In this document: piece after piece, positions 17,236-51,452 of the stretch | Position numbering within the stretch: position 1 is the stretch's first letter | How the letters are laid out: each line of letters starts with the position of its first letter | Source of the DNA: Octopus sinensis | Lineage: Eukaryota | Length of the DNA stretch: 64,000 nt | Assembly: GCF_006345805.1 (NCBI RefSeq) | Contig: NC_043014.1 | Location: forward strand, 52,390,001-52,454,000 | Direction: 5' to 3' | Program-made: the position numbers and the translations under genes | Notes under the pieces: model-generated | Databases searched by the model: none | Seen by the model: only the letters and a program-made list of their open reading frames with translations | What the model was told of the DNA's origin: nothing

Positions 17236-17384
17236 CATTCTCCATTTTCCCTCTTATTCCTTTCTGTCAAAGAGCGTGGGCTCGAAACGTAAAAGACTTT
17301 TCCATTTTACCTGAACGTCAAATTAATACACCTTGTTGTTCGTACACTTGTATTCGTCTTTTGTGTTTCTTTAAATTTGAACTA
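17236..17384 (+). mobile_element. Family H: short (TA)n-associated element with a variant HHR-like motif
   Basis: CTTTCTGTCAAAGAGCGTGGGCTCGAAACGTAAAAG at 17260-17295. Homologous to copies at 27227, 27498, 38681, 38838 and 51262. Confidence 0.7.
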
Positions 17385-17724
17385 TATACAGTACTATATA
17401 AATATAGAAACAGGTTTGATATGAAGTTTACGATACATCATTGTATATACGATAAAAAATATATCGTCGGTGCATCTCATAAGTATTAAATATTAAAATG
17501 ATTGTGTGAAGGGTTCCCTTATTGATAAATATTTTTCAGCTATTAACAAAGTCAAAGATGTAGCATAAACTTTCTGTATATAAAACTTAGTACAGTGTTC
17601 CAAAATTCACATATGTTGTAGAAATATATATTGAATTTTGCAAAGTGATTCTTTCAAAAATTAAAATTGTTTATATTATTTTTATTTACACAATGAAATA
17701 GATGTATTGAAATTTCATAATATA

Positions 17725-19013
17725 CAGCACACACACACCACACACACACACACAAATATACATGTATACATAAACACACACACATATATATATACATACA
17801 CACACACATATATATATATATACACACACACATATATATATATATACATACACACACACATATATAATATATATATATACATAACACACACACATATATA
17901 CACACATATATACACACATATATACACACATATATACACACACAACATATATACACACATATATACACACATATATACACACACAACATATATATATATA
18001 CACACACACCATATATATATATATAGATATATATATATACATACATAAACATATATATAATAATATATATATATATATACATACATAAACATATATATAT
18101 ATAGATATATATATATATACATACATAAACATATATATATACATATATATATACATACATAAACATATATATATATATACATAAACATATATATACATAC
18201 ATAAACATATATATATATATACATATATATATATACATACATAAACATATATATATATATACATATATATATATACACATACATAAACATATATATACAA
18301 ATATATATATACACACACACACATATATACAAATATATATATACACACACACACATATATACACACACATATATACACACATATATATACACACACACAC
18401 ATATACACACACACACACTATACACACACACACACATATACACACACACACATATATACACACACACATATACACACACACACACATACACACACACACA
18501 CATATATACACACACACACATATACACACACACACATATATACACACACACACACATATACACACACACACACACATACATACACACACACACACATACA
18601 CACACACACACATATACACACACACACACACATATACACACACACACACACTATATACACACACACACACATATACACACACACACATATACACACACAC
18701 ACACACACACATATATACACACACACACACACACACACACATATATACACACACACACATATATACACACACACATATATACACACACATATACACACAC
18801 ACACACATATATATATATATATATGCAGTTGAACACATATGCATAAACATACGTATTTTTATAACATATGCATAAACACTTTACTATATATACATATATA
18901 TATATATATTAGTTGTAGATAGATATGCATAAACATACGTGTTTTTATAATAGTGTACATAAACAATTTGCCTGTATATATATATATATATATATATATA
19001 TATATATATATAT
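17725..19013. repeat. Compound (CA)n/(TA)n microsatellite
   Basis: Direct inspection. Confidence 0.95.
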
Positions 19014-20989
19014 AATAGCAAGCACCTATTTCGGGGTCCAATTTATTGAATATTGTTTTGTTGATTAAGTCTCTCTATATAGCTGCATATCTTGGAAAGT
19101 TTACTCTATTGTGCTTCCCCTTTCACCTCCTTCCAAAGTTTTTCCCCTTATTCTTATCTCTTCCTCCTTGTTTTCCTTCGTTTGTAAAACCCAATTCTGA
19201 AATAAACATTGAATCCTAAAAAACAAAACTTTTTGTTAATGTTTTGATGTATTCATTGAAATATTTCATTGCTATTGGTGTATGATTTATAGCTGTTCTT
19301 TTCTCAATGGTATTTCGCGTATTCAGTTATCGTAAATTTGAAAATATAAGAAATATTAAAAAAGTTTAGAATAAAAATTCCCCAGTTGACTAAAGGGGAA
19401 GAGACAAATCCACAAAACAAAATCTTAGAAAGTTATAGAAATGTTTTATAAAATTTTACGATTTATATAGTTCTCGAAATATATTACCTAAATTAGACGG
19501 AATAAAATGGAAGCTATTACAGCAATATAACATATACTGAAAGTTATATATTTCCAAGAAAAGTATATTTTTATAAAAATAATATATAAATGTGAATATG
19601 CTTTGTTAAGCAGAAATTCTGCTCAAAGCAAACTATTTTCGAAAATGCAAAGGAAACATGTTTTTGTATATATTTGGTTTTCTATTTCTCAAGTATAGTA
19701 TTTGTAACGCATTCACCTTGAAACGAGTGAAATTGTTAAAGTTATTTGACTATTCTGTTATTCTAGTGTAGTGTTTTATTTCGTCTTAGATTGTTGAACG
19801 TATTCAGTAAGTAAAAATTTCTATAAAATATTCACTTATTAATTCATTTCAAAATAGAAACTTCTTTTCCTTCTTGATATTTCTTTCAGAAAGAAAAATA
19901 TATTTTTGAGAATATAACAAAATATTGATTAATTCTAACACTTTCTCATAAAGCTGACCATAAAACTGTACATTATATATATATATATATATGTGTATAT
20001 ATATCCTGTGATATAGTTAATTATTCATATATGTTATATACAGATATATGACTTCTATACAACTGATTTATATAATAGAGACTACAGTGTTGATACATGT
20101 GTGTTCAAGCCGCGCTAGAAAGAATACAAATGGAAAATGTTTGTGGACAAGTTTGGTTTTAAAGAATTATTTATTGAGAACGCTATAAAAGGATTTAAGA
20201 GATATTTCAGCTCATTTTTATTTTTTTTAATGTTTAATCTGAAATGCATCTGAACTATTGGTCATATGAAACACTATGAGAATGGTATAATCCTTGTCCT
20301 TGAGTCCCACCTTGGATATTTGAAAACAGTTCGAAGATAGTGGATTGGTTTATCGGAACACTGAAAACGTTAGCTCTTCACATAGTTAATCTTCTTTGGG
20401 GAAAATAATGAAGACGCTAAGACACATAGTGATATCAGCTTACATATATATTTAGAAGAATTCGTATTAATACGAATATAATTTTTGCGAGTTTTACGTG
20501 ATGGGTAATTATACGTATGTGAGGATCTTAATCAGTAAATTGCTTACCACTCTTAGTTTTGAAACAAAAGTTCCAGGATCAAATTTAATATGGCCGTATG
20601 TTAAAACTAGACATAAGATGTTATTAGACAAACCTCATGTCGATTGGAATCTATTGTAGATTTAACTAGATTGTGTTGCTATGAACGTGTCTAGCTATAA
20701 GAAAATTCTTAATCATAACGAATACTTTGTCACAAACGGTAGCAAGTTGTGGTCAAATGCGTGACACTCATATTTCACTGAAAAGTATCTTCTGTGAAGA
20801 TTTCAGCCAAACCTAATGCTACAGTTTAGCTAAACAATCGATAACCGTTCTACGCTTACTATATTTCTTCAGAAAAGTTGTCACTACAAAGTCGGAGGAA
20901 TCACTTGCCTCTGGTGCGTTAGGTTTCTGCATTTTATCAGCATTTGAAGTATCGTATCAGTTTTAGTTTATGATTACCTGATGCAATTT

Positions 20990-48294: not shown

Positions 48295-49505
48295 TGTATA
48301 TACATATACATACATACATGTATACACACACACACACACATATATATATATATATATATATATATATATATGTGTGTGTGTGTGTGTGCGTGTGTGTGTG
48401 TGTGTGTGCGTGCGTATACATTTATGTATATATATATATATGTTTGTATATATATATGTATATATATATATATGGATATATATATGTATATTATATATAT
48501 GTATATATATGTGTATATATATATATATGTATATATATGTGTATATATATATATATATATGTATATATAATATATATGTATATAAATATATATGTATATA
48601 TAATGTATGTATATATATGTATATATATTATGTATATATATGTATATATATGCATATAAATATATATGTATGTATATATGTATATAATATGTATATATAT
48701 ATATGTATATATGTATATATATATGTATTATATATATATATATATGTTATATATATATGTATATATTTAAATATATATGTATATAAGTATATATATATAT
48801 ATGTGTGTATATATACATATATATGTATATATATATAAATATATATATAGATATATATATATATATAATATATATATATGTATATATATGTATATATATT
48901 GTATATATATATGTATATATATATGTATATATATATGTATATATATATGTATATATATATATATGTATATATATATATATATGTATATATATATGTATAT
49001 ATATATGTATATATATATGTATATATATGTATATATATATGTATATATATAGTATGTATATATATAATATGTATATATATATATGTATATATATATATAT
49101 GTATATATATATGTATATATATATGTATATATATATATATGTATATATTATGTATATATATATGTTATATATATGTATGTATATATTATGTATATATATA
49201 GTATGTATATATATATGTATATATATATGTATGTATATATATATATATATAATGTATGTATATATATATGTATATATATATATATGTATATATATGTATA
49301 TATATATATATCTATATATATATGTATATATATATATGTATATATATATGTTATATATATGTATGTATATATATATATATGTATATATATATATATGTAT
49401 ATATATATATGTATATAAGTATATATGTATGTGTGTATATATCTATATACATACATATATATATATATATGTATATATATATATATGTGTGTGTGTGTGT
49501 GTGTA
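48295..49505. repeat. Compound (TA)n/(TATG)n microsatellite
   Basis: Direct inspection. Confidence 0.95.
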
Positions 49506-51261
49506 CGGCTTGTTCACATTTTGAGCAAGACTCAAATTATAATAATTATTATCTGTCCAACGCATTGTGTACTCCTTCCTTCACTCTCTATATGAAGGTT
49601 CCATATGCATATAAACCACCAGTATATAGGTTTGTGTTTTTTGTATATATATATATACATATACCTGTGTGTATGTGTGCATGTATGTGCATATGTGCAT
49701 GTATAGACTATAAGTATAGATACACACATATATAGGTGTGTGTGTATCTGTGTAAAAACTGCATATATATATGTGCGTGTGTGTGTATGTACAGACTCAC
49801 TCACACGTGCTTGCCATAGCTGCGTAAGTGAATGTGAGTATGTATACAGCCATGTGCATCTGCGTACAGAGTGATGTCGACGTATTGTGTTGGCGGTGCT
49901 TACGTAGGAGGAAACGAGACGGCAGAAGACGAAGAGAGGAAAGAACACGAAAATAAAAATAATAATAATAATAATAATAATAGTAAGATACGAAAGATAA
50001 AAAAGAAAAGAAAAAATAGTCTCATTTATTTTATATGAAAACACGTTTTACGTGAAAGTCCCCTTCTCTCCTGAATTGTAATTTTCCCAACCATATCACT
50101 TATCATTTCAGGAAACATCAGATGTTGAATTGCTATCTCAGTAAACTGTTATATACCTCAGCAGCAAACTATATGTGCTTGAATACATTACAAGTTTGAG
50201 TGTCTGCTGCTTTAACAAGCATTCTAAACGAAATGCAATGAAGCCAGATCACTTTTCTCCCCATTCCCATATTCTACGTTTATGTGCAAAACTCGAGAAC
50301 GAAATAAAATATAAAATAAAACAGAAGCCGCTTTAGTATTGGCCCTTTTTTTATTCCTATCATTTTAGCGACTCTTTCCGCATCATGTAGCGACTTTGAT
50401 GTTGGGAATTTGTATTTTATTCAAAGAGAGAGATGGGCTTATTTGTATTCATGATGTATTGATACACTTTTATCTTTAAAGCTACTATCATAAATATGGC
50501 TCTATATAAAGTTGACATTAATGGTAGCATGTCTATAAAAGGGAGGGGGGAAAATAGAATAAAAAAACTACACCCAATGGAATATTAGGCTGCTACGCAT
50601 CTTCGTTTCGTTGGATATAACGTATATTCCTATAATGCGTTCTATTCAGATGGAAAACGCGGTATGCACATTGGGGCTGTTGACAGTGGAATGTCTCGTT
50701 GACTTTAATCTTTCATCTTAAATCTAGCAAGTCAGCTACATAACATATGGTAAGAATAAATCTATTTCAGAATTCTTACACTTTTGCATTAGGCATAAAA
50801 GAAGGGAAAATATCTAATAGGATTTCAAAAATATGAATCCGAAATTCTCTCCATTCTAAGATAGGTTTTATATCGTGATATTATTTATTACTAAACTGCG
50901 ACCTTATTTGCATAGTAAATATGGAAATTTTGATACCTTAACTAGTTTCATCCAGACGCTGCGATCATGCTGGAGCGCCGTCTTGCTGGGAATATTGGTT
51001 TATGATATTTCATTACCACATGTCTCAGTTAGTGTTAAAGACTACTGAATCGGAGATATGGACATCGCTACCGTCATTTGCATTCCTTGGTCTGATGTCG
51101 GATTCTCTAGTATGCAAATATGTATGTGTTAGTGCTTGATGTTTCTAAGCATTATCATCTATATGCATGCATTCATTTCTTTGTGCTTGTGTAATACAAT
51201 TACACGTATATATGTATGTATAATTCTATATATATTTTCAGACGCATATACACACATATAG

Positions 51262-51452
51262 TTACATCGTTAGCCACTACACACATTTTTCTCTCCTTGT
51301 TTCTCTCCTTGATTTTTCTGTGTTCCTTTCTGTAGAAGAACGTAGGCTCGAAACGTAAAAGACTTTTTCTATTCCTGAGCGTTATACTAATACATCTGTA
51401 TGTTTTTTGTACACCACCTGTCTTCGCCTTTTGCTTTTTCGTAAACTCTCCC
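51262..51452 (+). mobile_element. Family H copy
   Basis: Motif CTTTCTGTAGAAGAACGTAGGCTCGAAACGTAAAAG at 51326-51361. Ends in (TA)n. Confidence 0.75.

Follow-up and report, generated by a model that had tools for sequence, protein, structure and literature searches.

A family of minimal type I hammerhead motifs, six of which lie in a 64,000-nucleotide stretch of the Octopus sinensis genome (contig NC_043014.1, positions 52,390,001 to 52,454,000 of the forward strand; hereafter the window), carries uridine instead of adenosine at core position 6 (A6U) and resides in the terminal repeats (pLTRs) of a 4.5-kb Penelope-like element (PLE). An earlier note on this DNA had proposed a conserved variant core, and genome-wide comparison bore this out as a family-wide A6U. 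The motif would work like the minimal hammerhead of PLE repeats, yet in place of the core sequence CUGANGA (or UUGANAA) it has CUGUNGA in 16,186 of 16,928 exact genome-wide matches to its tetraloop pattern. We tentatively favor the reading that it is a ribozyme, likely strongly slowed, whose cutting would require a dimer or the aid of protein.

Position 6 was U in 16,186, A in 274 and C or G in 468 of the exact matches, and reversed-pattern controls returned 0 matches genome-wide. Many of the aligned copies were found via core patterns; among 30 loci chosen on their reverse transcriptase (RT), U6 was present in 39 of 41 own-lineage motifs (the remaining two being one C6 and one deletion, with A6 in none), and a pattern-free sample of the main cluster had U6 in 17 of 19 copies, C in two and A in none. 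Copies with long open frames have U6. No U6-lineage subfamily with a different core was found in 724 kb of unselected DNA containing 50 matches. A hidden A6 master within the U6 lineage was considered and rejected, as A6 copies are spread over subfamilies and approximately 7 of 30 come from a sister lineage.

The parent element was traced in the host genome (2.72 Gb, (TA)n-rich) through an RT search that gave 21,966 candidates, 135 of which were scored. GIY-YIG and RT frames lie upstream of some motif copies, so that an RT partner, anticipated in the earlier note, is now in hand: an element with RT and GIY-YIG domains carries the motif in its pLTRs. Among 20 loci chosen for their longest open frames, nine have the motif in both repeats. 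At L161, motifs at 2724 and 7232 flank an open frame of 1,009 amino acids, and L163 has one of 963 amino acids; in both, a DKG motif (KPADKGG), the RT, a CxxxxCxxC linker (CSRPRCRTC) and the C-terminal endonuclease follow one another within one open reading frame (ORF). The RVT_1 match was above cut-off, and the GIY-YIG match (E = 0.0009) was below it. A CX2-5CxxC linker and (TA)n targets define the Neptune-type layout in PMC8557442. Copies of the octopus element are flanked by (TA)n, and we describe it as a putative Neptune-like PLE by layout, the linker being common to Neptune and Nematis and our tree being built without named reference RTs. The 3' end of the element lies in (TA)n approximately 105 nt past the hammerhead cut site, and the ORF begins approximately 730 nt downstream of the hammerhead. 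Coding constraint was rejected as the reason for motif conservation, as in neither repeat does the motif overlap the ORF. In public sequence runs, the sets of five organisms contain 81–95% of pLTR words, and in four runs the depth of pLTR words rises approximately tenfold over the hammerhead, as expected if all subfamilies share it.

Conservation was assessed on 254 aligned copies, the largest cluster of which (150 copies) was reduced to 4–6 subfamily consensuses; 26 older U6 copies and the sister lineage were excluded, and copies selected for variant cores were dropped from state calling. None of the 30 hammerhead-constrained columns varied among consensuses, compared to 30–32 of 100–104 flanking columns (Fisher 7e-5 to 3e-4), a signature showing that, position 6 aside, the motif is under purifying selection. 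The sole variable columns of the 36-nt motif are N7, with all four bases, and N17, with A or U; C or G at position 17 occurs at background level in 339 of 16,186 exact matches (41 G in 100 by eye). The consensuses share stems CUUU/AAAG and GAGC/GCUC, the G10.1-C11.1 pair, an extra A after A9, an invariant loop II (GUAG) and an NUH cut site, and the predicted probability of stem II in the isolated motif is 0.80–1.00. The palindromic ACGU that the earlier note saw in place of stem III is present in all consensuses, with no loop III; cleavage of a dimer through it is a prediction. The note had also taken the varying loops gugg, cuag and ggag as evidence for stem II; these turned out to be single-copy decay, as all subfamily consensuses have GUAG.

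Folding predictions gave no consistent role of U6 in monomer stability. The idea that U6 locks the monomer as an inactive rod by pairing with A15.1 was rejected as a general cause: the effect holds in the N7=U subfamily (1.6 kcal/mol), is neutral with N7=A and is reversed with N7=C and N7=G; mispairing is predicted for outgroup cores too. A further short element, (C/U)GAGCG, is found approximately 25 nt past the cut site in both lineages (for example, 27570-27577 on the minus strand of the window) and is predicted to pair with the 3' strand of stem II and G12 with a probability of 0 to 0.93 depending on the copy. It may possibly be an off-switch or an old duplication of stem II.

Comparison with related elements indicates that A6U is fixed in one lineage and derived, since 27 motifs in related elements elsewhere have A6. 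These motifs are canonical and come from 25 loci out of a set of 80 metagenome loci whose RTs are related. When one change was permitted at position 4 or 6, scanning returned 23 sense motifs in 21 loci, all with U4 and A6, and a less strict scan, covering 39 of the 80 loci, added four canonical motifs and one doubtful match. In Fig. S3 of PMC4209133, U4 and A6 are present in 56 of 56 aligned PLE motifs. A quick tree with Shimodaira–Hasegawa-like approximate likelihood-ratio support (SH-aLRT) placed the U6 lineage (99) beside the sister lineage that retains A6 (100), the two being joined at 100. No motif was found at the nearest tree neighbors (L242, L244 and L246, all from metagenomes); the closest homologues show 55% identity. 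The literature searched contained no natural A6U hammerhead and no such family in a comparable host, its coverage lacking one paper likely to hold such variants.

The sister lineage (L181-L210, L321 and L341-L350), which shares approximately 67% amino acid identity with the U6 lineage, has a different change in the same turn. It accounts for 11,248 exact triloop matches genome-wide, with U4C in 65 of the first 100 inspected by eye and in 15 of 30 loci. Sister copies with intact frames of 1,008 amino acids read CCGACGA, have C at position 17 and contain a stem I mismatch of the U-U type. The CUGA turn is thus broken in both of these recently active lineages, at different positions (A6U and U4C), with the stem II face intact.

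Whether the RNA is cut was approached through the footprints left by insertion. From 134 copies continuing into the 5' untranslated region (UTR), 93 distinct 5'-repeat contexts were read at 88 loci. Of these, 85 extend across the entire motif, one starts inside it, one starts at the cut site and six start downstream. Inserted copies come mostly from RNA uncut at the hammerhead, as 85 of the 93 contexts cross the motif and a single one starts at the cut site. Slow or late cutting would be compatible with such templates. Junctions with (TA)n were counted at the cut site (46, comprising 35 exact and 11 one base on), in loop II (18) and approximately 35 nt downstream (64); relative to the latter two, which served as controls, the cut site has no excess, a rough comparison given that microhomology differs between the sites. 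The start of one multimer, at L366, coincides with the cut site, and a long copy at L095 begins 2-3 nt past it.

Eleven of the 88 loci (L366, L382, L384, L397, L408, L421, L430, L438, L446, L457 and L459) are head-to-tail hammerhead multimers of pLTR and 5' UTR. The units measure approximately 260-610 nt, with up to five hammerheads, and their junctions lie off the cut site. The junction differs from locus to locus, and the downstream point recurs (reference position 3147 three times, 3122 and 3073 twice each); for seven multimers, the end was observed to be the element's normal 3' terminus. They look like the products of rolling or repeated template-jump reverse transcription. Back-splicing was rejected as the source of the junctions, which show no GT/AG pattern.

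In the mechanism that we favor, reverse transcription would start downstream of the cut site, at a distance of approximately 105 nt, and would have to cross it, so that fast cutting would bring no benefit or be harmful. Stem II and the G8/A9/G12/A13/A14 face would be kept as a fold and the CUGA turn would drift to weak versions, A6U in this lineage and U4C in its sister; the active site would arise from a pair of copies joined via ACGU/ACGU and by an exchange of stem I strands. The single ground for expecting residual cleavage is the retention of C3-G8, G5, G12 and a base other than G at position 17. There is precedent in A6C: an engineered A6C hammerhead is slow yet active and is rescued by Mn (0.33/min at 10 mM Mg and 0.18/min at 0.3 mM Mn; PMC7151607), and a natural A6C hammerhead is likewise slow yet active (PMC3088659). 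Another precedent is the PLE hammerhead of the anole, for which cutting needs protein and which insertion in vitro can do without (PMC11167929). For A6U, no rate was found in the literature searched.

Several points weigh against this mechanism. The 5' truncations, the junctions and the 93 contexts contain no genomic footprint of cleavage at the cut site. With both lineages taken together, changes have occurred at two of the turn's four positions and at none in the stem II face, and the youngest sister subfamily has the stem I U-U mismatch. In a check of 14 sequences for the stem covariation that the earlier note looked to, stem II was invariant, showing no covariation, and stem I had one C-G to G-C exchange, between lineages only. 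The invariance of C3, U4 and G5 by itself has an approximately one-in-three chance at the flank rate of approximately 30%. A mutational scan found low activity for every single mutant of the CUGA turn (PMC9901934), A6C lowered the rate approximately 100,000-fold at 0.3 mM Mg, from 0.30 to 3.6e-6/min (PMC7151607), and minimal PLE hammerheads are already slow, cutting weakly and only as multimers (PMC4209133; PMC6765202). The conservation test shows that the motif is selected and cannot separate catalysis from a scaffold, and sequence cannot decide between a variant ribozyme, for which cleavage is a prediction, and a dead scaffold. The two alternatives of the earlier note, a natural core variant cleaving as a dimer and a dead ribozyme, thus both remain, the former as our tentative choice and the latter as a plausible competitor in which we place less confidence.

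In that competing explanation, the hammerhead would be catalytically dead and kept as an RNA scaffold, with stem II and the GAA/GAAA face binding the RT-endonuclease or shaping the RNA near the RT start and with the CUGA turn decaying. It is favored by the breakage of the turn at different positions in two intact-frame lineages, by 5' ends that do not accumulate at the cut site, by RT products that cross up to five motifs in a row and by the anole element, hammerhead mutants of which leave in vitro insertion unaffected (PMC11167929). However, C3-G8, G5 and G12 are unchanged in the consensuses of both lineages, where N17 is never G, and a natural position 6 variant is active. A broader scenario seems to us less likely than not: two recently active Penelope lineages would have independently disabled the CUGA turn, the fold being kept for protein binding and cutting being selected down, and the same RT would repeatedly copy short, uncleaved hammerhead RNAs, giving retrozyme-like arrays upon insertion.

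We consider it improbable that the motif is a near-normal ribozyme in vivo, with U6 offset by the protein, by contact within a dimer or by a metal (Mn2+, for example). The activity of A6C in 0.3 mM Mn (0.18/min), the protein assistance known in a PLE and the starts of L366 and L095 at or just past the cut site would agree with such compensation, but the core has no second compensating change, most insertions come from uncut RNA and the mutational scan found no rescue of turn mutants except a C3-G8 swap (PMC9901934). Equally improbable is conservation unrelated to the fold (promoter DNA, a splice signal or an alternative pairing, with the hammerhead a relic), to which the invariance of loop II in the U6 lineage, although hammerheads leave this loop free, and the retention of (C/U)GAGCG in both lineages, with its pairing to the 3' strand of stem II predicted for certain copies, would lend themselves, whereas the restriction of variable columns to N7 and N17, an outer stem I pair found as C-G, G-C and G-U, and a loop II that changes length in the sister lineage as the stem stays fixed argue for the fold.

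The retention of hammerheads by Penelope-like elements is puzzling, as these ribozymes cut poorly and proved dispensable in one in vitro study. Recently active elements of the octopus provide a series of natural alleles (U6, C4 and canonical sister subfamilies, all sharing one stem II), and tandem dimers occur naturally as well. Should U6 cut, the core regarded as invariant would be looser than is assumed in descriptor searches, which would be overlooking large families of ribozymes; should it not cut, the motif would directly attest to a role of the fold other than cutting.

Within the window, all six motifs of the earlier note were located, three per strand; six matches with up to two mismatches were found compared to 0 in 30 local shuffles. 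They lie in 5'-truncated 3' ends of the parent element that are 76-92% identical to it, and none is a perfect master sequence, each having private damage. U6, counted by the earlier note in five of six copies, is present in all six. The fragment at 17239..17388 (+) belongs to an older U6 subfamily, and its motif (17264-17288) shows G8A decay. A young-subfamily fragment at 27225..27459 (−), 92% identical to the full-length element, contains the motif at 27332-27356 with N7=C and N17=A; its identical duplicate at 27496..27730 (−), with (TA)n in between, contains that at 27603-27627. These two motifs form one identical 271-bp local duplicate, and both lack the fourth stem I pair. The decayed N7=G fragment at 38695..38812 (+), with the motif at 38720-38744, retains U6 and has G5C and a broken ACGU, in line with the stronger decay ascribed to it in the note. 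It is arranged tail-to-tail with an N7=A fragment at 38837..38985 (−), the motif of which (38936-38960) has a stem I mismatch; the likely 5' continuation of the latter lies at 39712..39781 (−), separated by approximately 730 bp of another retroelement. The N7=A fragment at 51267..51454 (+) contains the motif at 51330-51354, with one stem II mismatch. A seventh fragment, at 12683..12788 (+), holds just the portion 3' of the hammerhead.

The retroelement fragment that interrupts the 38837 copy (38986-39711) has a (CAT)n tail, and a reading frame at 39249-39761 (−) resembles the RT end of what we take to be an RTE-type long interspersed nuclear element (LINE). Long near-perfect inverted repeats of approximately 220 and 260 bp at 16832-17051 and 32017-32274 match unrelated microRNA models below cut-off and are either like miniature inverted-repeat transposable elements or inverted insertions. 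Inverted repeat pairs at 24238-24510/25351-25623 and 9651-10051/41436-41858 (210-270 bp, 92-93% identity) belong to other dispersed families. An Rfam search of the window gave no hammerhead among the 150 listed of 303 weak matches, and the output of both Rfam and repeat finders was dominated by microsatellites.

Among the closest known systems are the minimal PLE pLTR hammerheads (PMC4209133, Fig. S3), which share with the octopus motif the place in both pLTRs, the short stem I, the extra A after A9, G10.1-C11.1, a palindromic CG without loop III and the NUH site. Stem II is GGGC/GCUC in Acropora compared to GAGC/GCUC here, A6 is U here and the only core variant named in the parts covered is U3-A8, and no cephalopod is listed in them. 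The Bcep176 phage A6C hammerhead (PMC3088659; PMC7151607) is likewise a natural change at core position 6; it has C instead of U, a single phage locus and measured activity, whereas the octopus variant is present in approximately 16,000 copies of a spreading retroelement and its activity is predicted only. Non-LTR retrozymes, proposed as PLE-derived tandem arrays (bioRxiv 10.64898/2026.07.22.740005), resemble the 11 multimer loci in their short head-to-tail pLTR units with a hammerhead. However, the copies in the window are solo pieces truncated from an autonomous element, and the arrays have differing junctions off the cut site and finish at the element's normal 3' end; the motif family was accordingly not classed as a non-LTR retrozyme, a family of non-autonomous tandem units that spreads on its own. 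Poseidon PAc of Anolis carolinensis (PMC11167929) has a protein-assisted hammerhead that overlaps the ORF start and is dispensable for insertion in vitro, whereas the octopus ORF lies approximately 730 nt downstream of a variant core. The two elements are alike in a hammerhead upstream of the internal RT start, in uncut RNA as the main insertion substrate and in AT-rich targets.

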